From: a virus | Taxonomy: Duplodnaviria > Caudoviricetes | Direction: 5' to 3' (one strand) | IMG/VR virus record: IMGVR_UViG_3300023047_000002 | Length of the DNA stretch: 64,000 bases | Shown here: positions 13,903-58,412 of the stretch, piece by piece | Layout of the letters: each line of letters opens with the position of its first letter | How positions within the stretch are numbered: the stretch's first letter is position 1 | Translations under genes and position numbers: made by a program | The notes under the pieces: model-generated | Told to the model about the DNA's origin: nothing | Database searches by the model: none | Seen by the model: the letters and a program-made list of their open reading frames with translations, nothing else

Positions 13903-13913
13903 TACATTTTCTC

Positions 13914-14560: not shown

Positions 14561-14579
14561 ACGCTTCCTCCATTAAAGT

Positions 14580-16282: not shown

Positions 16283-16312
16283 TTTTACACCTCCCTTCTA
16301 CTTGAAATAATA

Positions 16313-16600: not shown

Positions 16601-16621
16601 ACCGTAAAATAAAGAGAGATG

Positions 16622-16720: not shown

Positions 16721-16722
16721 GA

Positions 16723-17223: not shown

Positions 17224-17235
17224 ATGAGACACTTC

Positions 17236-17607: not shown

Positions 17608-17696
17608 GCGTTTCTCTTGTCAAAGGCTCTTTCAAGAACTTTTTGGAACATGTCCAGAGTACGAAACTCATTCACTCCGTACTCATGGCATCCTTA

Positions 17697-17737
17697 ATGA
17701 TGACACTAATAAGATTTCGTTGCTTTTACAGCACCAC
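17697..17737 (-). promoter_or_regulatory. GTGGTGCTG-class promoter
   Basis: Minus strand: GTGGTGCTG-N26-CATCAT with TGt extension. Confidence 0.6.
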
Positions 17738-17843
17738 GAAAGCAACGAAACCTTATTAACTTGCACGGCGGAGTGTCGAGACGTGTCGATATGCAGAAAA
17801 GCCGTATAAAATCTATGGATGCTAACTTGCCGGTAACTTTCAC

Positions 17844-17900
17844 CAAAGGGCGAGCGGAAGCCCACGGGCTAAAGACCGTTGGCTTTCGGCTCACTTATGG
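17844..17900. repeat. Two IS200/IS605 left ends fused head-to-head over one hairpin
   Basis: TTCAC|CAAAGGGCGAGCGGAAGCCCACGGGCTAAAG on +, and CATAAGTGAGCCGAAAGCCAACGG on -. It supplies the amidase C-terminus and stop. Confidence 0.7.
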
Positions 17901-18546: not shown

Positions 18547-18601
18547 AAACAACACCTCCGTGCCCCAACAAACATATACTGTTTCGATAGATTCAGGGTC
18601 T

Positions 18602-24200: not shown

Positions 24201-24579
24201 CGTCACTTCATGTGTATTCAAAACAAACGGAGTCTTCAAGACAGCAAACATTTCGTGGGGAGACTTCATTCAAAATTTCGTTCCATATTATGCAATCACT
24301 GTGAACAAAGCACAAGGGCTTGAATGGGATGACGTAGTTGTTCTGTACGGAAATCCTGAAAAATTGGACGAACGTCAAGGTGCATATGTTCCAAAGAAGA
24401 ACTACAACCTAAACAGTTCTGATGCAGTACAAGCAACCTACGTTGCCATATCAAGACCACGTGAAACATTACGAATTTATTACGATGGAGTACGGACAAC
24501 AAAACAAAACACACCCGTGTTCGCAAATCATCTGGACATCCTTAAAGAATTAGAACTTACTGTTACAAAAGGAGCTTAA
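21238..24579 (+). CDS. RecD/Dda-like SF1B helicase, intein-containing
   Basis: Motifs GPAGSGK|T, IDEFSQ, LGDLVQ, TNHR, YAITVNKAQGLEW and YVAISRPR. Confidence 0.88.
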   Translation: MSDELYTNNDEWMDNPEDINDNDTEDKEDVSYLFNTPDFLKPNTDTESQNVTLSTIINSRLQGYGVVKDFENEDRKEVETSPDEQLRASLKQKTFSKSEIQRSIDDFRREVQTKITTKDLVDTIVEVASGYKSKGDKLDLLGWDILDTEKRHYKYVPLQAITDFSRRDTTIRKAVFRNSFVNFIKTGEKKFVPVLGDELVSFIIEEVFQSPDLLPASQGYDMFRRMARGVRGDGTPFSVSELADSIRFSCTPDALRVKFNTLVSQNKNGGSTLVSYYAKHNISLDKEQLSRDFSARISTSCKRVVESGQFGFVQEETIDTLKAMDSIIQEMIKRNLFHVLIGPAGSGKAMPKDMKIPTPDGEKTFGELKVGDFVFDRKGHPTKVLGVYDRGVRPCFELTFSDGRKTRCCDEHLWTCYTSKNNFKTLTLREMMELGIRHEGRKEGARFRIPTNECVEYEQKTLPVHPYIVGAFLGDGCCKELNLTLSSDDIPVVERVAALLNATYKKTSTQNYSWIFIKNGHPLKTKDVFKEVAPCLIQGSNDKRVPSDYLYGSREQRIALLQGLFDTDGSVSYRSNGMANFSTTSKTLYENVSYLLRSLGVQVSNKSKPVCRGRVKHDGTCSVDYTLITYLKPEQFEMCFSLPRQLDKLKTVYGTFKQPAKRTDRVALVDVREVEPCEQQCILVDNEEHLFLANDFIVTHNTHKAVNEYFPTLEQKRGKGTLLVSLSTLVAINGADRATKRNKPTNPCSITMFNFCNKNPLRCAWVTGYDTYCIDEFSQWGLEQLDTFMSILKRAYQERSNLVILGDLVQIGTFLGRGNLLYMLTANYPYTELSTNHRIKDARISEVIDDIRIRQTRSFEPFRMDLISLQAFLHKKPSKSEMCITGSNAYAGLVNELKLEAELRQSINDKLPNFYVPSGTSDWNDYDVWNQNEEWIRTRMKKTSLKVRPKENYRFEQGIGKSLRASYSTKFLRNETCIAMMSSEFTVCVTSCVFKTNGVFKTANISWGDFIQNFVPYYAITVNKAQGLEWDDVVVLYGNPEKLDERQGAYVPKKNYNLNSSDAVQATYVAISRPRETLRIYYDGVRTTKQNTPVFANHLDILKELELTVTKGA
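22282..23340 (+). mobile_element. Class 3 intein (353 aa, Ala1) with LAGLIDADG endonuclease in the Walker A loop
   Basis: AMPKD...DEHLW...QQCILVD...IVTHN|T gives the W-C-T triplet; endonuclease motifs GAFLGDG and GLFDTDG. Confidence 0.88.
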
Positions 24580-28223: not shown

Positions 28224-28623
28224 AGTCACTCCGATCCATCTTTATTCACCATTAATAACTAATGGCTACTATTAAATCACACCAAAACTGGTGTGGAGGG
28301 ATCTCTCATCGCAAGAAATATCTGCTTAAACAGGATGTTTCTTGCTCCGTTTATATCTCTGTCATGCACACGCTAGAAAGTTGGTGGCAGGAAACTATAT
28401 CCAGTACAGAAGATACCACGTATTACCATCGCCACCAACGTCAGAATGGTAAAGAATACAACGGCACAGAAGACGCCTAGAAGAATGTTTAAAAACGCAT
28501 CCATGTCGTTCACATTCCTGTACCTCTTCACAGGTATCACAAGGTTTCGTACAATCATTCCCGTCATCCTTGACCAGACAAATCATATCACAAACATTTC
28601 CAATGAACCCTTCCATCTTCAAA

Positions 28624-28815
28624 TCCATTCTCACGTTTGTTTGGTGAACTACCCACCGCCTAAAGTCGGTGGGCTTCAAATTCATTAGAATTTGATTTAT
28701 CCATTCTCACGAATTGGATTTCCTGTTTCAACGAACAGTCCACTCTACTAGAATTAAACCTAGTTTTGCTTCCCTGCCCTCCACAGGCATAAGTTCCGAT
28801 AGTTCCTACCGTACT
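28624..28815 (-). ncRNA. TnpB omegaRNA (scaffold plus guide CAAACAAACGTGAGAATGGA)
   Basis: Overlaps the tnpB 3' end and right end, as established for TnpB. The 5' limit is approximate. Confidence 0.75.
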
Positions 28816-30175
28816 TTTAATCTTGCTTATCGCGTCATTTCGCAAATTGATTGCCGCGTTGTGGTCACGATTATGTTCTACACCACATTCTGGGCAAATC
28901 CATTTACGAACGCTCAAATTCTTCACAGCTTCGTTCTTAAAACCACAATGACTGCACAACTGTGATGATGCGAACCACTTATCCGATTTAACCACGAAAC
29001 AGTTATGAAATTTGCTTTTCCATTCAAGCATATTCACAAACTTATTCCATGACACATCATTATAGTTTTTGGAATTGTGGCTGAAACGCATCATGCCTTT
29101 GATGTTCAACGTCTCAACACCAATCACTTCATAACTACGGACAAGACGTAAAGTTTCTTTCTCCATCCAATCACGTCTTTTGTTAGCTATGTGTTCCTCA
29201 AATTTTGCCAATCGTCGTCTAGCCTTTTCACGGTTTTTGGAGTCTTTCTTGGTTCTCGAAAAGTTCCTTTGCAAATGAGCCAGATGACGTTTTGCTTCTT
29301 GCTTGAATGGAACATAATTGTGTGCTGAGTGATTGTTTGAGTCAATGTAAGCCTTTGATGGTGAAAAATCCAGTCCGATAGCTTGGTTATCGTTACCAGA
29401 AAAAGACTTCTCTCTATCGTTCAAACTTTCATAGACGCAACAAATCGAAGCATAACAGCGTCCAGATTTTGTCACTTCGACGGTCAAATTCTTTCTCTTG
29501 ATGCCTTTAGTATGGAACCATGCAGGAATGTGGTTATGACGAAACGTTACTTTGCCAATCTTTGGAATTTTAAGCCACATCTCATGTTCTGAAATAAGAT
29601 CCTCCGACAGCATTACCTCGCTGAAAGAACAACCATCCTTTTTCTTCTTGAAACGTGGTTTTCCTTTCTTGCCCTTAAAGAACTCAGAGTATGATTTTTG
29701 AGCATCACGCCTAGCCTGTTGCAGAGCAACGGATGAAACTTCCTTCAGAAAAGGAAACAACTCACAAAGATCTTTCTCTAATGTGTATTTGAACCCTTTA
29801 TAAATCTTGTTCTTTTCGTCTTTGTTCAGGTTACGACCTTTGATGTTATCAGCGTAAAATTGTTCCCTTGCTTCGACGTATTTGTTGTAGACAAAACGAC
29901 GGCATCCACCAGTTTTGATGAACATTTGAAGTTGTTCTGGTGTTGGGTACAATCTGATTTTAAGACTACGCTTAATTTCCATTGGTAACTGACCTGTGTT
30001 ACTGACCGATATGTGTGGTGGCAAACACTCGGTCAAAGTGTCTTTCGGGGATCAGCCTAGCCACCAAACATATAAATAGCATAACATGATGCTTCTTTCA
30101 AGTGCTTGTTTCAATTAAATTGGCTAGCTTTCATCCCACGGTCTAAAGCCCTTTGGTTTTCAAGCTCACAGTATG
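28644..30175 (-). mobile_element. IS200/IS605-family (IS1341-like, tnpB-only) element
   Basis: Left end TTTAT|CATACTGTGAGC...hairpin at 30125-30175; right-end hairpin ending GTAGTTCAC at 28644; no tnpA. Confidence 0.88.
28660..29982 (-). CDS. tnpB: RNA-guided endonuclease TnpB
   Basis: KIRLYPT HTH; RuvC IGLD / GVETL / RDHNAAIN; Zn finger CSHC-CPEC. Confidence 0.95.
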   Translation of the reverse strand: MEIKRSLKIRLYPTPEQLQMFIKTGGCRRFVYNKYVEAREQFYADNIKGRNLNKDEKNKIYKGFKYTLEKDLCELFPFLKEVSSVALQQARRDAQKSYSEFFKGKKGKPRFKKKKDGCSFSEVMLSEDLISEHEMWLKIPKIGKVTFRHNHIPAWFHTKGIKRKNLTVEVTKSGRCYASICCVYESLNDREKSFSGNDNQAIGLDFSPSKAYIDSNNHSAHNYVPFKQEAKRHLAHLQRNFSRTKKDSKNREKARRRLAKFEEHIANKRRDWMEKETLRLVRSYEVIGVETLNIKGMMRFSHNSKNYNDVSWNKFVNMLEWKSKFHNCFVVKSDKWFASSQLCSHCGFKNEAVKNLSVRKWICPECGVEHNRDHNAAINLRNDAISKIKSTVGTIGTYACGGQGSKTRFNSSRVDCSLKQEIQFVRMDKSNSNEFEAHRL

Positions 30176-30269
30176 ATAAATGCCTCGCGATCATTCACAT
30201 TCCTGTAACTTTCAATCTGTATCCCAATATTCCGTATCATCACAGTCATCCTTGATCAGATAAGTTATT

Positions 30270-30695
30270 TTAGACTGATTTCCAATGAACCCTTCCATCC
30301 TCAAATCCATTCTCACGTTTGTTTGACAAGCCAGGCATCCTTTTTCCGTTTAATAATATCACAGCTTCGCAGTATAACTCATCATCACAGGACATGCCAC
30401 GAAGACACCCGATCATAATATGACAGGCATCATATACGGTTGTAAACACATTCAGATTACGCCACGGTAAAGGTTTTTTTGGGTAATGGTAATACTTGAC
30501 ACATAAAGTGCATTTCTTACTGTTTCTACCTGTTTGAACGCCAAGAAGTTCGCCTCTTGCAGTCACTGCATCGAGATGTTTGTCTCCATGTTGATTGATT
30601 TTAATGGTTTCTTCAAGCTGCTCTAAACTTACTTTGTCATTCCGTGCCATCGTGTTCTTTATCCTGAGTATTTTCCTTGTGGTTTTTCTGTTCAC
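30270..30695 (-). CDS. Hypothetical protein whose 3' end carries the TnpB guide match
   Basis: 141-aa ORF ending GLSNKRENGFEDGRVHWKSV. Confidence 0.55.
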   Translation of the reverse strand: MNRKTTRKILRIKNTMARNDKVSLEQLEETIKINQHGDKHLDAVTARGELLGVQTGRNSKKCTLCVKYYHYPKKPLPWRNLNVFTTVYDACHIMIGCLRGMSCDDELYCEAVILLNGKRMPGLSNKRENGFEDGRVHWKSV

Positions 30696-31724: not shown

Positions 31725-32600
31725 ATGTACAGTTCAATACTGATTAACGTAAAAGACGAACACAGGTATCTCCCAGAATGGATTGAACACCATCTGAATC
31801 TTGGCTTCGACCACATCTACGTTGTTGAAGACTTCAACTCTTCAAGCCATAGGGAACTTATCGACAAGTACATACAGACGAAGACGTTATCGCTTCATCG
31901 CATGGAAGACTTTGGAATCCTCGACGAGCAGAAAAATTATACACCGTGGCGTCAGGTATGGATGTATAACAGATTTTTCACCTCAGGATTGGTACAGCCA
32001 CATAAAGACGAATGGTGCGTGTTCCTCGACACGGATGAGTTCCTGATGTTTAAAGACGGGTATACACTCAACAACTGGATATCCGACCTGGAAACGAAAG
32101 CACGTGAAACCGGCGATTGGTTTTCATACATCGTGTTGCGAAACTTCAATGCAAGTGGTCACATCTATGCTCCAAACGTACCTACAGTACAAGCATATAA
32201 ACAATGGGAATACAGAGACAACGACATGCTGTGCAAGTCAGTGGTCAATGTCTCAAGACCTTATAAATTCTTCTGTATCCAACGTGCGATGAGATACGAA
32301 CAAACACAGCCTAGCAAACCACATGCACAGGAATTAGATACAGGTAATGTGTGGATAAATCATTATTTCACAAAGTCATGGGAAGACTGGCTGATTCGTA
32401 TGAGACGTGGGTCACAAGACCCGAACCTTCGCAAACTTGAACAGTTCTTTGACATCTACAATAAAGATATGATGCGTTACAAATCACTTCTCATAGACTC
32501 ATTCTATATGTGTCAGGATGAGTGGATGCAGGGTGGAACTGAGTTCATACCACAAGAGATTGCTCCTTGTATTGATGTTCTGAAAAGCTCTCTTCCGTGA
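31725..32600 (+). CDS. Glycosyltransferase (GT2/GT92-like)
   Basis: VKDEHRYLPEWIEHHLNLGFDHIYV, DxD motif FLDTDEFL, and INHYFTKS. Confidence 0.85.
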   Translation: MYSSILINVKDEHRYLPEWIEHHLNLGFDHIYVVEDFNSSSHRELIDKYIQTKTLSLHRMEDFGILDEQKNYTPWRQVWMYNRFFTSGLVQPHKDEWCVFLDTDEFLMFKDGYTLNNWISDLETKARETGDWFSYIVLRNFNASGHIYAPNVPTVQAYKQWEYRDNDMLCKSVVNVSRPYKFFCIQRAMRYEQTQPSKPHAQELDTGNVWINHYFTKSWEDWLIRMRRGSQDPNLRKLEQFFDIYNKDMMRYKSLLIDSFYMCQDEWMQGGTEFIPQEIAPCIDVLKSSLP

Positions 32601-32644
32601 GCTACCCACAGCTCGAATCTGTTAAATGTCAGTTGGTAGTTCAC
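32597..32644. repeat. Degenerate right-end/right-end palindrome
   Basis: GTGAGCTACCCAC...GTTGGTAGTTCAC; contains the glycosyltransferase TGA stop. Confidence 0.65.
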
Positions 32645-32736
32645 CTCTCCTGAAAAATCTCCGATGAAGTCTGTGCAGTCATGTTAGGCGAAATTGACTC
32701 CCTTGAGTGTTATGCACGATGACATAGATCAGAAAT

Positions 32737-32786
32737 AAAAGACAAAAACCACAAGCCAAATAAAGGCTTGTGGTTTTTGTCTTTTT
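32737..32786. terminator. Bidirectional intrinsic terminator-like hairpin
   Basis: AAAAGACAAAAACCACAAGCC / GGCTTGTGGTTTTTGTCTTTT. Confidence 0.75.
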
Positions 32787-32787
32787 C

Positions 32788-32829
32788 ATGGTGCTGTTTT
32801 AATCCCTTGGTTTTCTTTTGTGGTAGTGT
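32788..32829 (+). promoter_or_regulatory. GTGGTGCTG-class promoter
   Basis: ATGGTGCTG-N27-TAGTGT with TGg extension, followed by a leader hairpin. Confidence 0.6.
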
Positions 32830-32877
32830 CGCTATAAGACAAAATGGGTTTGTCTTATATTATAGCAGAGGATTGAA

Positions 32878-33369
32878 ATGGCACTAATATGGAAAAAGAA
32901 ACGAATGATACGGTCTGAAAGGATTCATCGAATCATCGAGATGGCTCTTAAAAAAGCTAAATACCAAGATCGTGTCGCTGATTTGCTGCCACAGATTGCA
33001 CAGAATTGGTGTCTTTGTACATATTGCCGAATGTACGACCCAGACAACATAAATTACCGTGGGTGGCGTAAAGAACTCATCGCTCATATAGGAATGCTTA
33101 AATCGATTCCTGTAAAAGGCGATAAGGAAAAATGGACACGAGATGAAGTCATAAATACAAGCGAGTATAACAATGTGGATGTAATTCGCTGTGTATGTGA
33201 CTTCAAACTTGACGATGAGGATGAAATTGACTTCACGCAATCAATAAGAAAAGATCTGTATCGTGATTGTGCAGAGAATGCAGAAACAATCGTGTCGCTT
33301 ATCTCAAGTGATTCGTTGCCCTCAGAAAAGCTCTATAAGATATTCCCACTTAAAACAGATCGATTCTGA
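32878..33369 (+). CDS. EMA...NWCL family protein (paralog 2)
   Basis: IIEMALKKAKYQ...QNWCLCTYC...WRKEL. Confidence 0.75.
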   Translation: MALIWKKKRMIRSERIHRIIEMALKKAKYQDRVADLLPQIAQNWCLCTYCRMYDPDNINYRGWRKELIAHIGMLKSIPVKGDKEKWTRDEVINTSEYNNVDVIRCVCDFKLDDEDEIDFTQSIRKDLYRDCAENAETIVSLISSDSLPSEKLYKIFPLKTDRF

Positions 33370-33393
33370 CAGAAAATGAGGTGAACATTAATT

Positions 33394-33903
33394 ATGATAC
33401 GCATAAGTCATGCAGTTAAAAAACAACGCTTTATTCTTGAGATGGCTTTTAACAAAAGTCAATTTCAGACACGTGTGTTAAACCTTGCAAAGCAGATTGC
33501 TGAAAACTGGTGTCTCTGTCAATATTGCCATAAATATGAAAAGACTTTTCCTACGTATGTCCACTGGAAAAGCGAGCTTGAAGGATATCTTGACGAGTTA
33601 AACACAATGTCCATTGACAATGATAGATCACGTGAGAAGTGGAGCCTTGAAATTCTCAGAAAGGGAGACTTTGATGACGCTCAAAAAGTTTTCCGACAAT
33701 GCAAAAGGAAATTCATGATAGAGCATGTGCTGAACATGCCAAAAAATTCGCAGATAGAAGTGTGTGATGACTTTGCCAACATGATTGAGGATATCTCAAA
33801 ATGTATCGGAAGCGTTGACGGCATTGTCCCGTTCACATGCAAATGGTTTCCTGAAGTGTTGACAACCTTCGACATCCGATGGAGATCCGAACACAAATAT
33901 TAA
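33394..33903 (+). CDS. EMA...NWCL family protein (paralog 3)
   Basis: ILEMAFNKSQFQ...ENWCLCQYC...HWKSEL. Confidence 0.75.
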   Translation: MIRISHAVKKQRFILEMAFNKSQFQTRVLNLAKQIAENWCLCQYCHKYEKTFPTYVHWKSELEGYLDELNTMSIDNDRSREKWSLEILRKGDFDDAQKVFRQCKRKFMIEHVLNMPKNSQIEVCDDFANMIEDISKCIGSVDGIVPFTCKWFPEVLTTFDIRWRSEHKY

Positions 33904-33916
33904 AGGATGTGAATCA

Positions 33917-34525
33917 ATGGCACGACAAAATAAAACAATCAAACCTAATACAGAAGAGAAAAAGCAACAAGAGCAACAGGAACTTGAAGAGCTCAAGCTC
34001 AGAATGGATAAGATGAAAGCCGAAGAAGAGCGACTAAAAGCAAACACGGTTCCAACGGCTGAGTATCTTGAAAACATTCGCAAAACGCATAAAGACCCGT
34101 ATTGGATGTCGTATGAAGTGGTACAGATAAAGCTCGGATCACCCATACAGACGATTTTCACTAGCGAACATTACTACGAGGCATTCGACGTTTTCAAGGA
34201 ATACTTCGAGAAAGATAAACACGCCAGAATGGATTTGGTCGTTCGTGAGGTACGTGATGGCACACCTATTTTCAGAACAATCGTAGCTGAATTTGAGGTA
34301 GCGGGAGCACATGGGGATGTGACATCTGATGGAAGACAAACACTTTCATCGTTTGCTAGTCCGACCGATTATGGACGTTTTGGCCCTAGTGTGTACAATC
34401 AAACGTACAAAGATGCTAAATGGGCAGGATATGAGGCATACTCTCGCCCCCTAAAGACTTTCAGTTATGGAGATTGTAGCAGTGGTTTTGACCAGAAAAG
34501 CGAGCCGAAAGCCCACCCGCTTTAG
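33917..34525 (+). CDS. Hypothetical protein; C-terminus and stop supplied by a mini-element
   Basis: Ends DQKSEPKAHPL* inside 34493-34541. Confidence 0.7.
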   Translation: MARQNKTIKPNTEEKKQQEQQELEELKLRMDKMKAEEERLKANTVPTAEYLENIRKTHKDPYWMSYEVVQIKLGSPIQTIFTSEHYYEAFDVFKEYFEKDKHARMDLVVREVRDGTPIFRTIVAEFEVAGAHGDVTSDGRQTLSSFASPTDYGRFGPSVYNQTYKDAKWAGYEAYSRPLKTFSYGDCSSGFDQKSEPKAHPL

Positions 34526-34541
34526 CGGGTGGGTAGTTGAC
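34493..34541 (+). mobile_element. 49-bp IS200/IS605 mini-element
   Basis: TTGAC|CAGAAAAGCGAGCCGAAAGCCCACCCGCTTTAGCGGGTGGGTAGTTGAC. Confidence 0.8.
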
Positions 34542-34762
34542 TAAAGGTGGTGTGAACTTTCTTTATATGCAACAGTTTGAGAACCCATCCCTGAAGTATG
34601 AGACCCTAACGTATCTAAAACAGGTGATGTTTCTTTAGGCAAAGGTTGTGCTTGCGTCGTATCGTTTTCGTATAACAAAGCAAAAAGTACAGCGCAAACA
34701 ATGATAGTGAACACCATATAGATGCTTTTTATTATGTTCATTTCGGTTACCTGTATGTTCAA
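34541..34762 (-). CDS. Small membrane protein
   Basis: N-terminal hydrophobic helix; the stop abuts the mini-element. Confidence 0.5.
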   Translation of the reverse strand: MNIQVTEMNIIKSIYMVFTIIVCAVLFALLYENDTTQAQPLPKETSPVLDTLGSHTSGMGSQTVAYKESSHHL

Positions 34763-36379: not shown

Positions 36380-36860
36380 TTTCCTTTGAGATATGCAGTC
36401 TGCCCTTCCCAAAGGAAACAAATGGTTGCGTTAATTTGGCAACGCAACACCTACACATCTTTGATAACATCTATGGTTATCATGTCGCTATTTATTGCTG
36501 TAAGCCACCAACATGAAAGTCAGTGTAATGCGTATTGTCATTTACGACAACGACAATACGGCTTCCCCTCGACAAAGCATCAACTGAGTTGAACGAACTG
36601 GGGAGGCATCATAACGTTTCATTAAAGTTGATGCATAGTTCCTAAGAGATGAGTCTGTTCTCTTCAGTATGACATTTACTACGGGCGTTTTAGAGGTAGT
36701 ACACCCATATTAAATGCCATACCTCTGAGACGGACGAGACTGTGTGAATCAACGGATACGTGCGTTACACCTGTAATAAATGTCATACCTCTGAGACATC
36801 TAATGGAGGTTTAAAATGCCACACCTACGAGATACGTATCTAATGACCGGGAGGCATACA
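36380..36860. other. Structured non-coding region with 21-bp repeats (candidate ncRNA or origin)
   Basis: At least five hairpins, three direct copies and one inverted copy of TAAATGYCATACCTCTGAGAC. Confidence 0.5.
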
Positions 36861-38575: not shown

Positions 38576-39199
38576 TCACCAGTCCGCATTAAACACAACG
38601 CATTCAGTATCCCAATCAATATCTCTAAGTATGGAACGAATACCTGTGAGCAGTTTCGACACATGGTCGAAGTGTGAATCAGAACACCTACAAGGAAATG
38701 CTTTGTTTGTTATTCGGTTGACATTACCATGAATACGATTTTTTGTTTTTTCGTCTGCGGTCACCGTGTACGAAATCAAAACACCAAAATCATCATATCC
38801 TAACACACAACCTTTCTGATTCTTTAAGTATTTCTCTATATCAATCAGGCATTTTTTAGCACTGTCAAGAAGTTCCTCACATTGTGCTCGTGTGATGACC
38901 ATATCTTTTGCATAATAATCGTCATCATACCCAAAGAACTCCAAAAGAAAATGGAACTTACGAAAGTAAAGAGCTTCAGAATCAAACGTCTCTGTAGAGT
39001 CACATGAAGCATTAAACTGAGAGAGAGCTTTGAACAAAGCTAGCTCTAGAGTACAGTCATTATTCTCTGCCCATACTTTAAGACGACCAAGTTCGTACAG
39101 AACACCTGCGTCATTCAATGAACAGGTCAATAAATCAGGATTGAACGGTTCAGAAGAAACGACTCTAGGCTTAACATAAAAATAAGCATCAAGACCCAT
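38576..39199 (-). CDS. Conserved phage protein (MGLD...YFRK...W type)
   Basis: Characteristic N-terminus and terminal Trp. Confidence 0.65.
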   Translation of the reverse strand: MGLDAYFYVKPRVVSSEPFNPDLLTCSLNDAGVLYELGRLKVWAENNDCTLELALFKALSQFNASCDSTETFDSEALYFRKFHFLLEFFGYDDDYYAKDMVITRAQCEELLDSAKKCLIDIEKYLKNQKGCVLGYDDFGVLISYTVTADEKTKNRIHGNVNRITNKAFPCRCSDSHFDHVSKLLTGIRSILRDIDWDTECVVFNADW

Positions 39200-41899: not shown

Positions 41900-42213
41900 T
41901 TACACTATCCAATAAGTTATGTTGTCGTACATCATGCAAGGAACTTGGATGTCATATTCTTTCATATCCGCACCAATCCAATCCCATGTTTCTCTCTCCC
42001 CTTGTGTATTGCGTGTGGGCAACAGACGTTGCCCACGAGTCCTTATCGTTTCAGCAGAATGGCATTCCCATATTGGGCTATGTTCTTTTCAGCAAAGTAG
42101 TTATCCTTGCCCCATGCATCTGTCATATGAAGTTTAATCGGTTCGGCTTTATACCCATTCACCATCAAAGCGGCGATAAGGCATGTTTTCGCCTCAACCG
42201 TAATAACCACTTC
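41900..42213 (-). pseudogene. Possible 5'-truncated gene remnant next to the palindrome
   Basis: One frame EVVITVEAK...LLKR*GLVG...YWIV* with a single internal TAA and no start/RBS before the hairpin. Confidence 0.35.
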
Positions 42214-42251
42214 GTGAACTACCCACCCGCTTTAGCGGGTGGGTAGTTCAC
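42214..42251. repeat. Perfect 38-bp right-end/right-end palindrome
   Basis: GTGAACTACCCACCCGC-TTTA-GCGGGTGGGTAGTTCAC. Confidence 0.9.
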
Positions 42252-42255
42252 ACAC

Positions 42256-43260
42256 TTAAAATGTGTGTATTTCAAGGGGAGTTATCATCTCACGCAATTC
42301 TTCACCTTGAGTGATAGCATTAATGTATTTGTCCCCAAATTGCCTTAGCAGTTTTAAGCACAAATCCAAACATTTTATTACATCATTTGGAAATTCGTTT
42401 ATGTCATCTTCATAAAAAGCATTACCAATAGATTCAATGTAATTTTTGGATGTTTTCACAAGGTCAACAGAACTATTTGTAGTCTGCTCCAAGACACGTG
42501 TTAAAACTTTAGTGACACTCTTTTGAGTGTGTGAGTTCAAATCGATTTCATCAGGGAAAACGTTTGCATATTTTTGAAAGTCTGAATAGCTCATGGAGAC
42601 ACCAAGAATGTCTAAAACTGAGGTGTTCACTCTATCGAACAAGTCTTGATTCTTAAATCCATATATCACCTTTCGGTGCTTCGTTGTGTCTTCAAGACCT
42701 ATCTGCCTAAAATAATGAACACCGTCTTCGTCAAGTTCAAGTTGATCATGTTTATTTAAAATTTCTTCTGCATAAATATTTGGGATTGGATATCCGTTAT
42801 ATTTTTTCATCAAATATTCAACTTTGCCACTGACTTCTGCCCAATACCATCCTTCATAGTTTTTGATATCGTATCGGATCAGGGCTCTAGCGAACTCACC
42901 AGAACCCTTTATGTCCATATTTTTAGCGAGTGCAATGTTTTTATAACTACCATCTACAATTCGGAACACTTCTAATGCCATTATATCATTCTGGTGATTA
43001 GAAAGCTCAGACTCTTCGTAAGTGGTTGATGTGATTACCCTAAGTAATTTAGCACTTTTTAGAAACTTTTTTGGGTTGCTTGTTCCCAAATAACCACCAA
43101 TTGACGCATAAGCCTTTTCAATAATATCACGCATTTTAACGAAAAATGTTTCAACATCTGGCGGTGTAATATCATAGATTGCACAAATTTCCCATTGCAC
43201 ATGACTTATGGATTCCCCATAAGTCGAAGTGTGATGTCTGTTTTTTCTAATCAGTGCCAT
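42256..43260 (-). CDS. Phage protein with basic leader (AYxxIGG / WAEVSG / DGxHYxRxIG), function unknown
   Basis: GAGGT RBS; visibly AT-richer than its neighbours; flanked by IS-end hairpins. Confidence 0.75.
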   Translation of the reverse strand: MALIRKNRHHTSTYGESISHVQWEICAIYDITPPDVETFFVKMRDIIEKAYASIGGYLGTSNPKKFLKSAKLLRVITSTTYEESELSNHQNDIMALEVFRIVDGSYKNIALAKNMDIKGSGEFARALIRYDIKNYEGWYWAEVSGKVEYLMKKYNGYPIPNIYAEEILNKHDQLELDEDGVHYFRQIGLEDTTKHRKVIYGFKNQDLFDRVNTSVLDILGVSMSYSDFQKYANVFPDEIDLNSHTQKSVTKVLTRVLEQTTNSSVDLVKTSKNYIESIGNAFYEDDINEFPNDVIKCLDLCLKLLRQFGDKYINAITQGEELREMITPLEIHTF

Positions 43261-43340
43261 ATCGCTACCTCACTTCATTTAAGATAAAAGTCTCGATAGC
43301 AACCTTTCCAACCATTTCAATGTTGCTATCATCACACGAT

Positions 43341-43382
43341 CTTATAGCACACTATTTCTTACAGTATCTCTAACAGCACCAC
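43341..43382 (-). promoter_or_regulatory. GTGGTGCTG-class promoter
   Basis: Minus strand: GTGGTGCTG-N27-TATAAG with TGc extension. Confidence 0.7.
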
Positions 43383-43400
43383 GAAACAAAAAGTCTCCTA

Positions 43401-43422
43401 CTTTAGGCGGTGGGTAGTTCAC
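43401..43422 (+). repeat. Half right-end hairpin
   Basis: CTTTAGGCGGTGGGTAGTTCAC, between two divergent promoters. Confidence 0.75.
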
Positions 43423-43452
43423 GTAATAATGATAGCTGCACTTTCTTTTGGT

Positions 43453-43492
43453 GTGGTGCTGGAAAAAGGACGTTCGACTTCTGTGATATAGT
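43453..43492 (+). promoter_or_regulatory. GTGGTGCTG-class promoter
   Basis: GTGGTGCTG-N25-TATAGT with TGa extension. Confidence 0.7.
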
Positions 43493-43560
43493 AGTGTGAG
43501 TATGTAGCAACTGTGGGTGGTACGGTTGCTGTCGAATGGAAGTAATCCTAATATCTGGAT

Positions 43561-43941
43561 GTGTTGATTATGCGAAAACGTGATCGTTCAAACGCTTTTG
43601 AAATGACAACTTTGAGAAAAGCACGTTCTGGCTTGCCGGTAAACATATACCTGGACGACAGTGGATCTTATCTTAATTGTGATTATGAACCTAGAATCCA
43701 ATTTCAACCAAATAAAGGAAACTGTCCGGACATTCGTTCTCTGATACCTATGACAATTTCAGACGAACCTACTATTCCGATAAAGAATTATCAGTCACGG
43801 TTAAATGGTGTTGGAAGTAATGACATCTCTTTGATTATGTCATTCGTCATTGCAAACAAAACAAATCTTCTCAGATTATGTGACCGTAATGATGAATACG
43901 ATATCTCCAATTTTTTGGATGACATGGTTAAAGTCTCGTGA
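43561..43941 (+). CDS. Small protein with basic leader, DUF4160-like
   Basis: AFEMTTLRKARSGLPVNIYLD...PRIQF; the TGA stop lies inside an IS right end. Confidence 0.65.
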   Translation: MLIMRKRDRSNAFEMTTLRKARSGLPVNIYLDDSGSYLNCDYEPRIQFQPNKGNCPDIRSLIPMTISDEPTIPIKNYQSRLNGVGSNDISLIMSFVIANKTNLLRLCDRNDEYDISNFLDDMVKVS

Positions 43942-43972
43942 ATTACCCACCGTCTTTAGCGGGTGGGATTCA
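43938..43972 (-). repeat. IS200/IS605 right-end hairpin
   Basis: GTGAATTACCCACCGTCTTTAGCGGGTGGGATTC. Confidence 0.75.
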
Positions 43973-43998
43973 AAACAGAGTATCTGGTGAGGTGTTGC

Positions 43999-44982
43999 AT
44001 GTTTCGTTCATTTGAATCAGTTAAAATTGATGATCCTGTACTTGAACTTGAATGGGAAGACCTGTCATTGATTGGCGGAGCTACTGGTCTTGCCCTAAGT
44101 CTTAAAAACAGTCTTTCGAAGTTCCTAAGAAATTATGGAGAACACGACATTCTTGAAGACTTATATCATGCAGTGGCGCTTGGTCTTAGTAATCTCCAAG
44201 AAATCGGTATGTTTGACGGTTTTTTGTCAAATCCTAATATTGAGTTTCGTGGAAAGACTAATATTTCCATACAGAATAAACTTGATAGACATCACATACA
44301 TTCAGCAGGTCGTCCTCTTGAAAAGGTCTTTAACGACTTGATTGGTATTAGAATTATCGTAGAAGATTATTCAGTATGGGAATCTGTAAAACATAAGTTT
44401 GATTCATCGGTGTGTACTGTCGTTGACATGAGATGCGGAAAGTTCCCTGATGATGGTTACAGAGCTGTTCACGTTTACTTCCAAGCTGATCACTTGCATT
44501 ATCCTGTTGAACTTCAATTCGTGTCTGAGCATGACAGTCAGTTCAACGCATGGCAACACGACCATGCATATAAGTCATCATGGTTTGCTCCTTCTGTAGG
44601 AAAGAAATTGCGTGAGTTATACGATGACTGGAAAATTCAGACAGAGGATGAGTATGTGTCAGAGCTCACTAAACTGTCATCAATGGTTACGTACTCAGAA
44701 AAAAGGACGTGGGAAGGTACGAAACTTGTTGCGTGCAGATTCGGTATAAAGGGGTGTATAGGGTACATGCCTGAAACGATTCACGAGTTAATGTACCTTT
44801 ATCGTGAACTTTGTCCCTATTGTAGAAGACAGATTCCAACAGTCGATGTAACTGTCGTTAAGGGAGAGAGTTATGCTGAGTTTAGTCCATGTACGATCTA
44901 CGCTACCTATACTGATTTTTATGCGGCGATATTCCATGATTTGTTAAGAAAACCTGAACGGCACTCACGGTGTACACCATGA
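43999..44982 (+). CDS. RelA/SpoT-domain protein (small alarmone synthetase-like)
   Basis: Motifs RGKTNIS, DLIGIR, GYRAVH, VELQ and HDHAYK; GAGGTG RBS before ATG 43999. Confidence 0.85.
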   Translation: MFRSFESVKIDDPVLELEWEDLSLIGGATGLALSLKNSLSKFLRNYGEHDILEDLYHAVALGLSNLQEIGMFDGFLSNPNIEFRGKTNISIQNKLDRHHIHSAGRPLEKVFNDLIGIRIIVEDYSVWESVKHKFDSSVCTVVDMRCGKFPDDGYRAVHVYFQADHLHYPVELQFVSEHDSQFNAWQHDHAYKSSWFAPSVGKKLRELYDDWKIQTEDEYVSELTKLSSMVTYSEKRTWEGTKLVACRFGIKGCIGYMPETIHELMYLYRELCPYCRRQIPTVDVTVVKGESYAEFSPCTIYATYTDFYAAIFHDLLRKPERHSRCTP

Positions 44983-45082
44983 ACTACCCACCCGCTAAAG
45001 GCGGTTGGTATGAATTAGGATATTAAGGTGACATGGAGACATTAAAGACATCGTTACCACCGCCTAAAGGCGGTGGTAACGA
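44979..45082. repeat. Two IS-end hairpins (44979-45010 and 45051-45082)
   Basis: TGAACTACCCACCCGCTAAAGGCGGTTGG and the perfect TCGTTACCACCGCC-TAAA-GGCGGTGGTAACGA. Confidence 0.8.
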
Positions 45083-45431
45083 GTGCCTTCGAGACACAAT
45101 GATTAACATCATTCATCCACCAATTTATCGTTATTCACTCTTCTTCAATCTTCTTCAATCTTATTCTACTTGATGATGTGCCACGAGTCTGCAATTCTGT
45201 ACTCAGTTCTTTGTACTGTTCCGAAATGAGTATTTACTTTGTGGATTCTCTTCGGTTCGCTAGCTTTAGTAGAGCAAAGAGGATCAAACATACCGTAACG
45301 GCTATCATGGATTCTATAATAGATTCTATCGTCCACATGTCTCTCCTACATTAGGCAATTAACAAATTTTAAATCTAAACACAATTTGAAACGACCCGTG
45401 ATAGAATCCACTACTCAAGCACGAATAAGAG

Positions 45432-45872
45432 TTACATGTTCTGTTTTTGTTCGGTTGCAATGGAAACTCCACCCAACGTGTTAGCCCAATTCTCAGGGAA
45501 ATGACAGTAATACCAGAGGATACTGTAATTCCCTTTCCGTCTTCTCCAATAGAGAATAACTGATGGAATAGCTACCACAAATAAGTAAAGAGGACCCAAA
45601 AACAAAGACTGAACACTGTGACCTGACTCATGCCTTAATATGTCTTCCTTAGAATCCTTGTGCGTGAAAATAAAAGGTCCCAATGACCAACACGTGTGCC
45701 AAGGATGTTTAACCCTCCACACGGTCATACCTGTATGTTCATTTTTCCAAGGTTCGATATCATGGAGTACTATTAAAACGAGCAAGGCAGCAATCACTTG
45801 TGGTAACTGCCATAAAAACAAAAGCCATACAACAGGGGAACTCAAGTTCGCATAATTGAAATCTGCTTTCAT
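45432..45872 (-). CDS. Membrane protein with HExxH metallopeptidase-like motif
   Basis: WQLPQ...SLGPFIF...HESGHSVQSLFLGPLYL, with transmembrane segments. Confidence 0.7.
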   Translation of the reverse strand: MKADFNYANLSSPVVWLLFLWQLPQVIAALLVLIVLHDIEPWKNEHTGMTVWRVKHPWHTCWSLGPFIFTHKDSKEDILRHESGHSVQSLFLGPLYLFVVAIPSVILYWRRRKGNYSILWYYCHFPENWANTLGGVSIATEQKQNM

Positions 45873-45915
45873 AATGAAAAATCCTATTATGCCCCTGTAA
45901 GTACAACTGTTTGAT

Positions 45916-45964
45916 AATGATGCGAGCCGCAAACCCACAGGCTAAATCCGCGTTGGTAGTTCAC
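45916..45964 (+). mobile_element. 49-bp IS200/IS605 mini-element (degenerate)
   Basis: TTGAT|AATGATGCGAGCCGCAAACCCACAGGCTAAATCCGCGTTGGTAGTTCAC. Confidence 0.7.
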
Positions 45965-46028
45965 CGCATAGAAAAAGAGCTCACAGAATACTTTCCATGA
46001 GCTCTATCAGATGTATCAACAAACTAAC

Positions 46029-46369
46029 GTCAACTACCCACCGCCTTTAGGCGGTGGGCTTGTAACTGACCCGTAGCTCTTGGTCGAGTGTTTGACACTC
46101 TACTACGTTTTTTACCAACTTTCTTTTCAGAAGATTGGCTGTCGTTACATCGTGGGGTGATTGACTGCACCCCGTAGGCTTGAATCATGTTCAAGACCCA
46201 CTTAAACTTGAATCTTGGTGTTTAAGTTCAGAGAGTGCCTTCAGTCCAAGTACCAAACGGTTTTCTCTCAAAACCTTAAATACAAAATATCACTTAACAA
46301 AGCAAGCAAGATTTTTAGTTGGCTCGCTTACCCACGGGCTTTAGCCCGTGGGCTTCCGCTCGCCTTATG
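46029..46369 (-). mobile_element. 341-bp non-autonomous IS200/IS605 element retaining a probable omegaRNA
   Basis: Left end TTCAC|CATAAGGCGAGCGGAAGCCCACGGGCTAAAGCCCGTGGG; right end GTTACAAGCCCACCGCCTAAAGGCGGTGGGTAGTTGAC; no ORF. Confidence 0.8.
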
Positions 46370-46374
46370 GTGAA

Positions 46375-55252: not shown

Positions 55253-58219
55253 TTAGATTGCTCCGGATTCAACTGTATTTGCTGACGAATCAACAATGAA
55301 ATCAACAGTAAAGATTTCAGCATCAGGAACGAACTGTAAATGAATCACGCCGTTGATTTTACGCTGTGCAATCAATTCTGGTGATGTCGTGTCGAAACCC
55401 ATTGCAACAGAATACTGTGCAAGACCTCCAAGTGCGTATATAGGTTCAAGAATGCTTGAAGAAACGTACTGTTTCCATTTCTGCCAAAGAGAACGGTCAT
55501 TAAGCGAGAATGTCAGTGTGTTCGTATACCGATCAACCTGCTGGTGGATATACACGAGAGTTCTTGCGATATGGGCTGCACTCAAATCGGTGTATTTGTA
55601 ATTCAAGGTTTCATTTCCGTAAATTTGAACACCAAGTACGCCCAAATCGAAAATAGGATTGATTCGATGATTGATAAGTTTATTTCGTTCTGTCTTTGTG
55701 GATGGATTGCGAATAACAGAAACACCGTCAGGAAGTTTACCACCCTGCTCACCGGCAACAGGATAGAACGTACCACGTGTACGATATGAAGCAAGGCCAC
55801 GCATGATGACGAGATAACATGGCGACATGTCAACACGTACAGTATTCGAAAGGACACCGTTATTCAGTTTCTGACAGGTCACACGAACCCAATCCCAATA
55901 CATCTCACAGTAAAAACTCTGATCACCATAAGTAACAGGCTCAGACATGCCGTATTCCCATAGGTCAGAAAATTCACCAAGAGAGTTTACCCAGTTGCAC
56001 GCATCATCCAGCGACATACCATATGGAGTTGTAAATATGCATGTCAAATCCTTACGGTCAGCTGCAATCTGTTTTAGGTAGTAATGTAATACACGTCTTG
56101 GAGACTCCTCCTCCTCTATTTTTTCAGGAAGATGGACAAGGTTTCCATCTTCATCTGTAACCATCGCAGAAAGCTCGGAAATAAAACATCCGTTATATGC
56201 AGGATTCTTGAACTCTTCAAAAGCACGCTGATAATCACCAACACCGAACGCCATTTTGCCCTGTGATAGAATAATTGGTTCTCCACAAGTATGTCCGCTT
56301 TTAACGACCGAACGTAAAGTCTCCACAACATCCGTACCATTAGCCTCATAGGGTTCCATGAGCGTAAACGACAGATAACTGCCCAATACAGAGTTCAACG
56401 ACTCCATGAAAGCACCGTTTGATAAACCCTCCGCCAGTGAAACACGTGTTGAAACAATCACATTCTGGTCAGGATTCGATTCATCATAATGAGAATACAG
56501 ACGCACATCCATTGCATACAGACCCAAAGATTTCGGTTTTAGCTGTATCAATTTTGTCATCAAGTAGAGTTCATCTGTGATACTCGAAATAACATCAGCA
56601 TAAGGCTTTGTCGCAGCCGTGTGTTTAACAGAAACCTCAAGACCATCTGTGAAAGGGATTTCAACACCCTCAGAATTCTTCTGCTTCTGGAATGTGACTT
56701 TTGTCTTGATTTCGCTGTCAACCATAACGGTCTCGACCTTGTAGTCAATCCCATCAACCATGTATGTGCACGACACAGGGCTGTTAGCCACATAAAGCCG
56801 TGTTTCACCAGAACCAGTAGATGCAAACGTAATCAGATTATTTGTCTTCGCATCTTCGTATTCCGTTGCATCGTAAAGTACTTCACCACCTAAAAGCGTG
56901 CAGGGCACGACACCCGGTAGAAAACGACCAAGCATGTCATCCGTTTTTACAGAAGCATCAACAGGATTACGTTTTTGATTGATTGCACATGCTAGTGCAA
57001 CATTCATCCCGAACTTCGTATTTGTTGAAGCCATCTTAACGCTTGACGGATATGTTGCAAACATACCGACAGGTGCAAGAGCACCCGAAGTGTCCGACCC
57101 AGTAGAGACTCTCGACAGAATCACGACATAATCATTGTCTTCAATGGCACTCTTGACATCTTCCTGCGAATACCAGTCAGTGTCGGTCGTGTCTATGGCA
57201 ATAATGGATTTCTGTGAAGCCCCCATAGCTGAAAGTTTCCCGAAAGCGTCTGCAAGATCAAATTCAGGTTCAGACGAAGGGAACGGAACAAAAATAAATT
57301 CGCCACACCCCGCAGAATTGAACCAGTACGTAATAATCTCATACACAGGCGAACTGTCATCAATTCCATAAATATTGCGAAGTTTAGCCAAGTCTCCGAT
57401 TTTCCAGATACCATGATAGTTACCGACGCCACCCTCAAGGGCAGTCCAGTCCGATAGCTCAGTTAAAAGCTCTTCATCGCTCTTGTCAAAAGAACCATAC
57501 ACTACAGTGTTTGAGTCAAACGAGTTAGCAACTGTATCACCACTGGAAGAAAGATTTTCAATCTCTTTGTATCCATCAGAACCCTTTTCACCTACATGTA
57601 CTGTATAAATGCTTCCTGTTTCGACACCATCCTGCATGGTGGATTCACGTGAAACCTTGACAGCAATGTTGTTACCGAAAGCACCCATTCGACGCATAAA
57701 AATTGTATTGGTTGAATCAAGTTCTTTCTTGGCTACCTTGTCAAGCGTACCGAAAGCAGTCTCGAAACCAAGCACAGGAATCCCATTCCCATTCGTTATA
57801 TCTGAAAGTTTCGTGTAACCGTCAATAAGAAGAACACCGTCTTCATCTGTACGCATTATATCTGTGAAAGTGTCTTTCTTTGAATCATCATTCAACAGAC
57901 AAATAAACTCAGCAGGATCACCAGAGGGTACTTTGCTGATATAAACAGAAAAACCAGTACGTACAATTTCACGAACTGCATAAAGGTCACGATACTTTTC
58001 AGGGTCAATACGTGGGTCACCAAACACACGGTCAAGCGTGTCTGTATCTTGAATAAATACAGGTTCATAAACAAGTTCCTCCGAATCTGACTTGGGCTTC
58101 GGTCCCCACGGCGTGACACACGCGAACAGTCCGGCGAAATCGGGTGCGTTCTTGATAAGCGAATTGTCCTTGATATATGTCTGGACATACGCCGCCTCTC
58201 TCGTAGTTGTAGGTTTCAT
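55253..58219 (-). CDS. Tail sheath protein
   Basis: TPWGP...VFGDP; C-terminal PVAG..G...RINPI...IYGNETL...RTL...FSLND. Confidence 0.88.
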   Translation of the reverse strand: MKPTTTREAAYVQTYIKDNSLIKNAPDFAGLFACVTPWGPKPKSDSEELVYEPVFIQDTDTLDRVFGDPRIDPEKYRDLYAVREIVRTGFSVYISKVPSGDPAEFICLLNDDSKKDTFTDIMRTDEDGVLLIDGYTKLSDITNGNGIPVLGFETAFGTLDKVAKKELDSTNTIFMRRMGAFGNNIAVKVSRESTMQDGVETGSIYTVHVGEKGSDGYKEIENLSSSGDTVANSFDSNTVVYGSFDKSDEELLTELSDWTALEGGVGNYHGIWKIGDLAKLRNIYGIDDSSPVYEIITYWFNSAGCGEFIFVPFPSSEPEFDLADAFGKLSAMGASQKSIIAIDTTDTDWYSQEDVKSAIEDNDYVVILSRVSTGSDTSGALAPVGMFATYPSSVKMASTNTKFGMNVALACAINQKRNPVDASVKTDDMLGRFLPGVVPCTLLGGEVLYDATEYEDAKTNNLITFASTGSGETRLYVANSPVSCTYMVDGIDYKVETVMVDSEIKTKVTFQKQKNSEGVEIPFTDGLEVSVKHTAATKPYADVISSITDELYLMTKLIQLKPKSLGLYAMDVRLYSHYDESNPDQNVIVSTRVSLAEGLSNGAFMESLNSVLGSYLSFTLMEPYEANGTDVVETLRSVVKSGHTCGEPIILSQGKMAFGVGDYQRAFEEFKNPAYNGCFISELSAMVTDEDGNLVHLPEKIEEEESPRRVLHYYLKQIAADRKDLTCIFTTPYGMSLDDACNWVNSLGEFSDLWEYGMSEPVTYGDQSFYCEMYWDWVRVTCQKLNNGVLSNTVRVDMSPCYLVIMRGLASYRTRGTFYPVAGEQGGKLPDGVSVIRNPSTKTERNKLINHRINPIFDLGVLGVQIYGNETLNYKYTDLSAAHIARTLVYIHQQVDRYTNTLTFSLNDRSLWQKWKQYVSSSILEPIYALGGLAQYSVAMGFDTTSPELIAQRKINGVIHLQFVPDAEIFTVDFIVDSSANTVESGAI

Positions 58220-58412
58220 AAGCATCTCCTTTTCGTTGTACAACGTAAAATCGTGCCCGTGCGGGTCAGCACCGATGTGCGCACAACAGGTGAAGACCTT
58301 AGATGCACATACGGCACGTAAATATATACGTCAAAATTTGATAAATAAACGTCATGATGTGCTTATGGCTAGGAAACAAAGACACATAAGACTTTCAGAC
58401 ATATACTGTCGG

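Follow-up and report, generated by a model that had tools for sequence, protein, structure and literature searches.

Hairpins related to the right end of a tnpB-only IS200/IS605 element as putative joining points of accessory genes in a hypervariable phage island

How large phages gain and swap accessory genes, including those for anti-defence and takeover, is poorly understood; to our knowledge, the only worked-out model is the shuffling mediated by PeSL (promoter-early stem-loop) cassettes in T4-type phages. The window described here, the whole analysed stretch of 64,000 nt of the IMG/VR virus record IMGVR_UViG_3300023047_000002 (Duplodnaviria; Caudoviricetes), is part of an uncultured large phage with a 243-kb genome. 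It holds at 42214-46374 an island in which genes alternate with short hairpins. The hairpins form one family with the right end (RE) of a resident insertion sequence (IS), a tnpB-only member of the IS200/IS605 group; they are absent from some relatives, and breakpoints of gene content lie at them. An original prediction, made from the letters of the window, had regarded the island as an integron-like array of single-gene cassettes moved by TnpA-type transposition.

Relatives were traced through homologues of the flanking 664-aa protein, with a protein index and contig look-ups. Scans of IMG/VR and the JGI collection with this protein gave one relative only, and megablast against GenBank phages gave no near match to the window. 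The comparison set consists of six further contig types beside the window. L121 shares ~98% nt identity with it; L124, L125 and L152, from three sequencing runs, ~90%; L122 and L123, ~88%; L001 (record G001, 98.6 kb) and L133, 85-91%; and L126 (the 237.8-kb NCBI contig), 77% identity. L146, a 243,109-bp metagenome contig of the European Nucleotide Archive (ENA), is 100% identical to the window across 16.4 kb, and the same identity is found in four shorter contigs of other samples. The arrangement of the window is thus seen in five independent assemblies and is no assembly artefact.

Description of the island

The array of the window consists of a remnant, a palindrome, gene X1 on the minus strand, a half hairpin, an upstream module P, gene Y, a hairpin, the RelA/SpoT gene Z, a second hairpin, a second palindrome, a segment with a doubtful open reading frame (ORF) of 56 aa, and a HESGH gene. 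One ORF is present per interval, namely X1 (334 aa, minus strand), Y (123/126 aa, plus strand), Z and the doubtful 56-aa ORF, in keeping with the predicted rule of usually one gene per interval. The Glu-terminated leaders noted on three cassette proteins are present in the sequences.

The remnant (41967-42213, minus strand) is window-specific and absent from L001, L121 and L122. It contains an ORF fragment of 55 aa (42043-42210), whose frame enters the palindrome at 42214 on three-frame translation. The 'beheaded gene' of the original prediction is just this fragment running into the palindrome; no full-length homologue is found among the loci compared.

The X1 segment (42256-43395, minus strand) is acquired DNA and comprises the 334-aa gene (42256-43260) with 135 nt upstream. 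No other kilobase of the window is as AT-rich (GC 0.355 vs 0.419 for the window), in agreement with the AT-richness noted for the first cassette. Identity to six contigs (L135-L140) is 92.4% at the nucleotide level over 1140 nt and 93% at the protein level; in these contigs the homologue lies downstream of a DDE transposase and an N6/N4 methylase. The module of DDE_Tnp_1 transposase, N6/N4 methylase and 334-aa gene is found in at least three outer contexts, phage-like and, in one case, bacterial-looking, and its 334-aa protein retains the same basic, Glu-ended N-terminus. No match for X1 is obtained in Pfam, PHROG, PADLOC or NCBIfam; the ESM Atlas is uninformative, and the AlphaFold model (pLDDT 56) is too poor for a structure search. 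The gene neighbourhood suggests that X1 may be the restriction-enzyme partner of the methylase. A contig scan with the X1 protein gave just two fragmentary matches in metagenome-assembled genomes and no host assignment. The promoter that had been ascribed to the gene itself is not confirmed: a scan for sigma-70-like sites (11 found vs 13.3 expected) and terminators showed no enrichment.

Module P (43423-43569, plus strand) begins directly after TTCAC and is a putative promoter. The stretch 43418-43490 is common to L152 and L121, and lies in L121 ahead of a different gene. Gene Y (43570-43941, plus strand; 123/126 aa) has its TGA stop within the GTGAA flank of the hairpin at 43938 and is 84.6% identical to a gene in L153, an unrelated 228-kb phage contig. 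Gene Z (43999-44982, plus strand; 327 aa) encodes a RelA/SpoT protein (Pfam PF04607, with a weak DUF6718 match), and its stop codon lies within the TGAAC flank of the hairpin at 44979. A copy of Z 96.5% identical and free of hairpins is present in L127, which stems from the run series of the ~90% lineage. A RelA/SpoT homologue of 51% identity occurs in L129/L130. Its neighbours there are Fic, ArdA and an S-AdoMet-lyase-like gene; the island has none of these hairpins and looks like an anti-defence neighbourhood. TGA stops of three unrelated genes lie inside element flanks: those of a glycosyltransferase gene (32598-32600, in GTGAGC), of Y (43939-43941) and of the RelA/SpoT gene (44980-44982), the last two in GTGAA or TGAAC. 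A target or end motif with a stop codon in it would agree with these positions.

The segment with the doubtful 56-aa ORF (45083-45372, minus strand) is absent from L125 and L152. The HESGH gene (45432-45872, minus strand) encodes a membrane protein of 146 aa. It had been predicted as an HExxH cassette; it is a core gene, kept by all relatives at 77-99% nt identity, and its start is most likely at 45872, not 45938. An ordinary intrinsic terminator of the 664-aa gene (45976-46005, minus strand) is kept in relatives and stands outside the hairpin family.

Description of the hairpin family

The core pattern is a 9-bp GC-rich stem with a TTTA/TAAA loop, and GTAG adjoins the stem. The window contains 13 copies, against 0.07 expected in shuffles, and 17 hairpin loci when degenerate copies are included. 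Seven of the 13 strict matches and 8 of the 17 loci lie within the 4.16 kb of 42214-46374 (binomial P ~5e-6), so that the predicted cluster of eight hairpins stands. Five forms are distinguished: full elements with a left end (LE) and RE; 50-nt mini-elements, composed of a GCGAGC box, one hairpin and TAGTTSAC; solo REs; perfect RE/RE palindromes (42214, 45051); and one half copy (43396). The five internal hairpins of the island (42214, 43396, 43938, 44979, 45051) are solo RE or palindromic and lack the GCGAGC left-end box. No RNA family of Rfam is found at gathering scores.

Perfect copies fold at -11 to -13 kcal/mol. The palindrome 42214-42251 is perfect and without strand, has 18-nt arms and a DNA fold of -13.3 kcal/mol, reads as RE-type (hairpin plus TAGTTCAC) on either strand, and is located 4 nt beyond the X1 stop codon. 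The half hairpin 43396-43422 (plus strand) retains only the loop, the right arm and TAGTTCAC; its left arm is replaced by acquired DNA. The hairpins 43938-43975 and 44979-45015 (both minus strand) are imperfect, chimeric and RE-type, with folds of only -5.9 kcal/mol each. In the former, the left arm CCCACCGTC is mismatched to the right arm GCGGGTGGG; in the latter, the left arm CCCACCCGC is the perfect partner of the 43938 right arm, and the right arm is of the type of the perfect copy at 62756. The palindrome 45051-45082 is perfect, without strand, with 15-nt arms and a fold of -12.8 kcal/mol, and is terminator-like on the minus strand. It alone among the hairpins has a T-tail, most copies having no T-tract. 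In L125, TGGTTCAC follows this same hairpin instead.

The resident tnpB element and elements without protein

The tnpB-only IS200/IS605 element (28646-30180, minus strand) encodes a protein with Pfam OrfB_IS605, Cas12f TNB and helix-turn-helix (HTH) domains. A full-length match to structures of ISDra2 TnpB (E 5e-55), in which the RuvC residues are aligned, makes TnpB look intact. The RE of the element consists of GAAG, a stem-loop and TAGTTCAC, and is the same as the consensus of the hairpin family, of which its hairpin is the prototype. The same RE adjoins tnpB genes in another phage, G002 (228 kb, 96% complete), and is present also in 12 further IMG/VR contigs. The copies of the hairpin in G002 are all IS ends, and G001 has zero copies, so the spread of solo copies is lineage-specific.

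The tnpB element is absent from G001; in the window it lies between two copies of ~139 bp of flanking sequence. The 20 nt 3' of its RE (CAAACAAACGTGAGAATGGA) are unchanged in the empty site of G001, where they are preceded by TTTAT, the motif that flanks the LE in the window. A second copy of the 20-nt sequence is present in the window at ~30306-30325, with CTTGT in place of TTTAT. As a sequence pattern, 28500-30330 looks like TnpB homing by guide and target-adjacent motif (TAM), with self-protection. A TnpB-like ORF of another kind is present in G001 (561-aa open frame; L001rc 11963-13761, G001 contig ~55283-55477) between homologues of the 664-aa and 1255-aa genes; its element does not use the hairpin family of the window, and the window has only 19 bp at that site.

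Three loci combine ends of the resident IS, absence of protein and presence/absence polymorphism: 46029-46371, 45917-45967 and 17831-17899. The first is a non-autonomous IS200/IS605 element of 343 bp (minus strand), whose RE (46029-46062) and LE (46320-46374) bound it and whose LE is homologous to that of the tnpB element. Read on the minus strand, it begins with TTCAC, LE, 17 nt and a hairpin, and ends with a hairpin and TAGTTGAC. None of the seven other contig types in the comparison has it; that it is missing even from L121, at ~98% identity, is a sign of recent mobility. Its inner part 46195-46281 has an 83% match, inverted, at 10138-10215, which may be a further element remnant. The second is a mini-element of 49 nt (45917-45967, plus strand), composed of a GCGAGC box, a degenerate hairpin and TAGTTCAC; L121 has it, L001, L122 and L133 are cleanly without it, and its exact insertion ends cannot be fixed, since two empty sites differ at the joint. 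The third (17831-17899, hairpin locus 17844) is absent from G001.

The tnpB element and the 343-bp element have subterminal hairpins with asymmetric spacing to the cleavage sites, that is, an IS608-like geometry. They fit the IS200/IS605 pattern, in which target duplication is lacking too; the 139-bp flank duplication of the tnpB element departs from it. In both, the flanking motif changes together with the 4 nt that precede the hairpin on its 5' side (GAAG/TCAC, CAAG/TGAC, AAAA/TTAT). As proof of TnpA activity this co-variation was rejected: it fits the two full elements and fails for mini-elements and solo REs.

Gene arrays among relatives

The hairpins are absent from homologous DNA of L001, L122, L126 and L133. 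The hairpin-free order is a 654-aa gene, HESGH, an N6/N4 methylase on the opposite strand, small ORFs and a 188/189-aa gene; it is collinear from 80 to 97% identity, with some variation in the small ORFs. The three lineages that bear hairpins have three different arrays. Beside that of the window, the L121 array is composed of P, X2, a TGAACTAC remnant with an LE-type hairpin, U (177 aa), an RE palindrome and HESGH, and the L152 array of X2, a TGAACTAC remnant, P, Y, one hairpin, a further hairpin and HESGH. Nearly every joint of these arrays has a hairpin or a TGAACTAC remnant. X2 is a homologue of X1 with 28% identity, in the opposite orientation in L121; U has no relative in IMG/VR.

Where hairpins are present, the array has turned over completely at ~2% core divergence; where they are absent, collinearity extends over 3-20% divergence. 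X2 shares 97.3% identity between L152 and L121, against 89-91% for the core genes of these two; this, with the 96.5% identity of Z to the L127 copy, indicates that cassettes moved laterally between diverged phages. The island is hypervariable among relatives. The original prediction had named two findings that would speak against it, a gene order identical to that of the window in hairpin-free relatives and variable-gene breakpoints off the ends; neither was found.

Breakpoints of gene content

At the RelA/SpoT gene, L124, L125 and L152 lack exactly 43968-44979, and the single hairpin that they have at this place consists of the left half of 43938 and the right half of 44979. When the right arm of 43938 and the left arm of 44979 are rejoined, a perfect RE hairpin of -12.1 kcal/mol is obtained, against -5.9 kcal/mol for each hairpin as found. 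From the arm sequences, the resolvable crossover appears to lie at the hairpin apex, at or just 3' of the loop, and not at the TTCAC cleavage site. Breakpoints exactly at TTCAC/TTGAC had been predicted; many are indeed in hairpins or a few nucleotides from them, but the one that can be resolved is at the apex.

Further joints are associated with hairpins. The homology of X1 to its donor module ends 4 nt from the 42214 palindrome and 6 nt before the loop of the half hairpin. The homology of Y with L153 ends at 43937, one base before the hairpin. L125 lacks 45078-45372, a stretch whose left boundary coincides with the 3' foot of the 45051 hairpin. The X2 joints are likewise at hairpins, and so is the right edge of the L121 array. 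Outside the island, a block of three ORFs (32592-34558, plus strand) is bracketed by mini-elements on the same strand (32592-32644 and 34493-34541) and is replaced by 100 bp in L001/G001. Hairpin 16622 and a 169-aa gene (16723-17232) together form an insertion relative to G001 (16619-17236). The 169-aa gene is also found in G001 at 89% nt identity, between homologues of the 207-aa and 199-aa genes and without the hairpin.

Search for transposase and integrase

A Y1_Tnp domain was found neither among the 48 window ORFs scanned nor in G001 (98.6 kb) or G002 (228 kb, 96% complete), the latter of which shares one cassette with the window; the TnpA catalysis of the original prediction thus lacks its enzyme in this DNA. 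No integrase or tyrosine recombinase family was found either in the ORFs of the island and its flanks or in the 48 further window ORFs covered by the scan. The internal island hairpins do not provide an LE and RE on the same strand around each mobile unit.

In the strict sense, the integron-like character that had been proposed is not upheld, and an integron is rejected: there is no IntI integrase, genes lie on both strands, X1 brought its own 135 nt of upstream DNA, cassettes are without a left end, and RelA/SpoT, Y and X1 occur elsewhere without a hairpin.

Proposed mechanism and rival explanations

The best reading of the island, adopted here with moderate confidence, is PeSL-like recombination at REP-like palindromes that derive from IS ends (REP, repetitive extragenic palindromic). 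The locus would be a hyperplastic accessory island colonised by a lineage-specific burst of IS200/IS605-derived palindromes, which at gene 3' ends and joints would act as preferred joining points. Recombination between two hairpins of the same sense would remove the gene between them as a circle with one hairpin; in the reverse event, a circle of gene plus hairpin would enter a resident hairpin. Foreign DNA might in addition be joined where the palindrome centre breaks or the template is switched there, and such centre events are suggested by the perfect extended palindromes (42214, 45051 and the one of L121) together with the apex-centred joints. The Z pattern would correspond to a circle of Z with one perfect hairpin crossing with a resident hairpin, and the reverse deletion would give the same pattern. 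That the hairpins cause the exchanges, and which enzyme acts on them, is presumed in this scheme. The island is tightly packed, and any joint at a gene boundary is near a hairpin there, so that proximity could reflect crowding; the chimeric hairpins around Z and the truncated hairpin beside X1 are evidence beyond mere proximity. Several points weigh against a causal role. The apex crossover is one event, placed by few single-nucleotide polymorphisms in a relative ~10% diverged, and with few arm variants in existence the chance of a matching arm partner is ~1 in 5 to 1 in 10. Nine of the 12 gene-sized differences between the window and G001 have no hairpin edges, hence mosaicism in this genome is not generally driven by the hairpins; the left edge (41898) of the large replacement between the window and L121 has none either. 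RelA/SpoT, Y and X1 are all found elsewhere without hairpins at 85-96% nt identity (L127, L153, L135-L140), hence hairpins are not needed for gene mobility generally. No enzyme for the exchange was identified, and the predicted circle junction was not found in IMG/VR contigs, a search that says little.

A serious rival, though of rather low probability, is that the hairpins are passive, being selfish PATE/REP-like insertions, perhaps kept as RNA 3'-end or terminator structures, that gather in permissive gaps of an island hypervariable for other reasons. Illegitimate recombination with selection for intact genes would then place the joints, and hairpins and breakpoints would merely both be at gene boundaries. 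The differences from G001 without hairpin edges and the movement of the same cassette genes without hairpins fit this, as do the somewhat variable hairpin-free relatives, the clean insertions 17844, 45917 and 46029 with nothing else altered, and the position of hairpins 3' of gene stop codons, as in REPs. It does not account for breakpoints of RelA/SpoT inside hairpins with reciprocal chimerism of the arms, for the replaced left arm of the half hairpin 43396, for the bracketing of the 32.6-34.6 kb block by two mini-elements, or for complete turnover at ~2% divergence with hairpins when hairpin-free order is collinear at 3-20%. A further proposal, which appears unlikely, is that the hairpins are sites of dedicated, apex-directed recombination. 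A circle of one gene and a perfect IS605-RE hairpin would enter a resident hairpin by strand exchange at the junction of loop and right arm. The enzyme would be an unrecognised one of phage or host, such as a nickase of HUH type that acts in the loop, or a TnpB-linked activity. If true, domesticated transposon ends would here make up an integrase-free 'integron' of a phage.

Under transposition as first proposed, a Y1 (HUH) TnpA or a REP-associated RAYT, encoded by the host or in phage DNA not seen here, would move cargo elements as single-stranded DNA circles at TTCAC/TTGAC, and the array would grow since each RE ends in a copy of the target. The IS608-like order of the 343-bp and tnpB elements (cleavage motif, 17 nt and hairpin at LE; hairpin and 8 nt at RE) and the co-variation of their 4 nt with the flanking motif agree with this, and so do the joints at a TTCAC boundary (promoter module, last Y codon, RelA/SpoT stop codon) and the stem followed by GTAG, as in GTAG-tagged REPs (PMC3733652). 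It is nevertheless quite unlikely as the source of the array: Y1_Tnp is missing from the 48 window ORFs, G001 and G002; the five internal hairpins have no LE box, and no cassette is therefore an LE...RE unit; the guide/cleavage rule fails for mini-elements; the empty site of L121 has TTGAC, where canonical insertion predicts TTCAC on the LE side; the RelA/SpoT crossover is at the loop, not the cleavage site; and the 139-bp duplication around the tnpB element is not made by peel-and-paste transposition. The last proposal, exchange driven by TnpB itself, is very improbable as the main cause. TnpB with guide RNAs from RE copies would cut rival genomes in co-infection, and repair from the hairpin-bearing genome would co-convert neighbouring genes, as with T-even homing endonucleases. 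In its favour, the protein looks intact (full-length ISDra2 TnpB match, RuvC residues aligned), the 20 nt after the RE stand unchanged behind TTTAT in the empty site of G001, the LE-flanking motif of the window, and the second copy of this target in the window has TTTAT changed to CTTGT; tnpB-only elements are common in these phages, and a homing model is published (PMC10055086). The island hairpins, however, are the last stem-loop only, without the ~100-nt upstream scaffold, and no Rfam RNA family is found; co-conversion tracts should end raggedly, not at hairpins. A contribution of TnpB homing is possible but leaves the hairpin joints unexplained.

With PeSL-like recombination preferred, the island offers a boundary repeat that can be traced to the right end of a TnpB IS and that, no transposase being visible, has increased in number within one phage lineage; natural variants catch the gain and loss of a single gene inside the repeats. 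IS200/IS605 and TnpB biology, REP-like palindromes and phage mosaicism, usually studied apart, are linked here in a concrete system for asking if recombination may come to use transposon ends as landmarks. RNA-guided homing between competing phages has a testable case in the neighbouring tnpB element.

Comparison with known systems

The PeSL of T4-type phages (Arbiol et al. 2010, PMC2839356; Comeau et al. 2014, PMC4122927) is likewise a dispersed stem-loop repeat at ORFan boundaries in hyperplastic regions. In RB49 an ORFan lies between two PeSLs where phi1 has a single chimeric PeSL, and mini-circles were detected (PMC2839356). The repeat-ORF-repeat arrangement around Z in the window and the single chimeric repeat of L124, L125 and L152 are of the same kind. 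In both cases the proposed intermediate is a mini-circle with one repeat, that of the island being a predicted one. The repeat of the window differs in being a transposon RE and not a composite of promoter and terminator: PeSL has a strong sigma-70 early promoter and a terminator, whereas the window repeat is without a conserved promoter and has a T-tail only at 45051-45082.

With PATE/MITE elements and the ends of IS200/IS605 (IS608, ISDra2; PMC3201880, PMC7290912) the family shares a hairpin the same in kind as the RE of the resident tnpB element, the protein-less LE/RE units of 343 bp and 49 nt with insertion polymorphism, and the asymmetric spacing of IS608, in which the cleavage site is far from the hairpin on the left and near on the right (PMC3201880). 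It differs in that no TnpA was found in the DNA searched, that most island copies are solo REs or RE/RE palindromes and not canonically excisable, and that they flank unrelated cargo genes.

REP, BIME and REPIN sequences with RAYT (PMC2817692, PMC3116915, PMC3733652) are similar as short, GC-rich extragenic palindromes with GTAG by the stem, a high copy number (here 17 per 64 kb), placement at gene 3' ends and a relationship to IS200/IS605. Unlike them, the island copies are in a phage genome and mark breakpoints of gene content, and no Y1/RAYT was found in the 48 window ORFs, G001 and G002. Integrons (IntI, attI, attC cassettes) and CALINs, the attC clusters that lack an integrase, resemble the island in single-gene units each followed by an imperfect palindrome, and in the circle with one palindrome that would enter a resident site. 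They differ from it in the tyrosine recombinase, none being found here, in the attC architecture, which the island palindromes do not have, and in the cassettes: those of the island lie in both orientations, have their own upstream regions and occur elsewhere without a palindrome. The transposon-end origin of the repeat and the breakpoints within hairpins are particular to this island.

Other features of the window

A large terminase (21238-24579), a tail sheath (55253-58243) and helicases are also encoded in the window. The region ~10000-18550 is inverted relative to G001 and shows several internal replacements. Two inserts are window-specific and absent from G001: 19009-20164, in a ligase ORF and with a LAGLIDADG homing-endonuclease match, and 22285-23336, in the large terminase ORF; insertion of an intein or homing endonuclease probably accounts for each of them. 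A repeat of another type, ~310 bp in length, has one copy in the window (36475-36806) and four in G001 (G001rc 2306-2610, 15304-15587, 24242-24545 and 38879-39130). Two of the G001 copies occupy the sites of the window hairpin loci 6011 and 25368.

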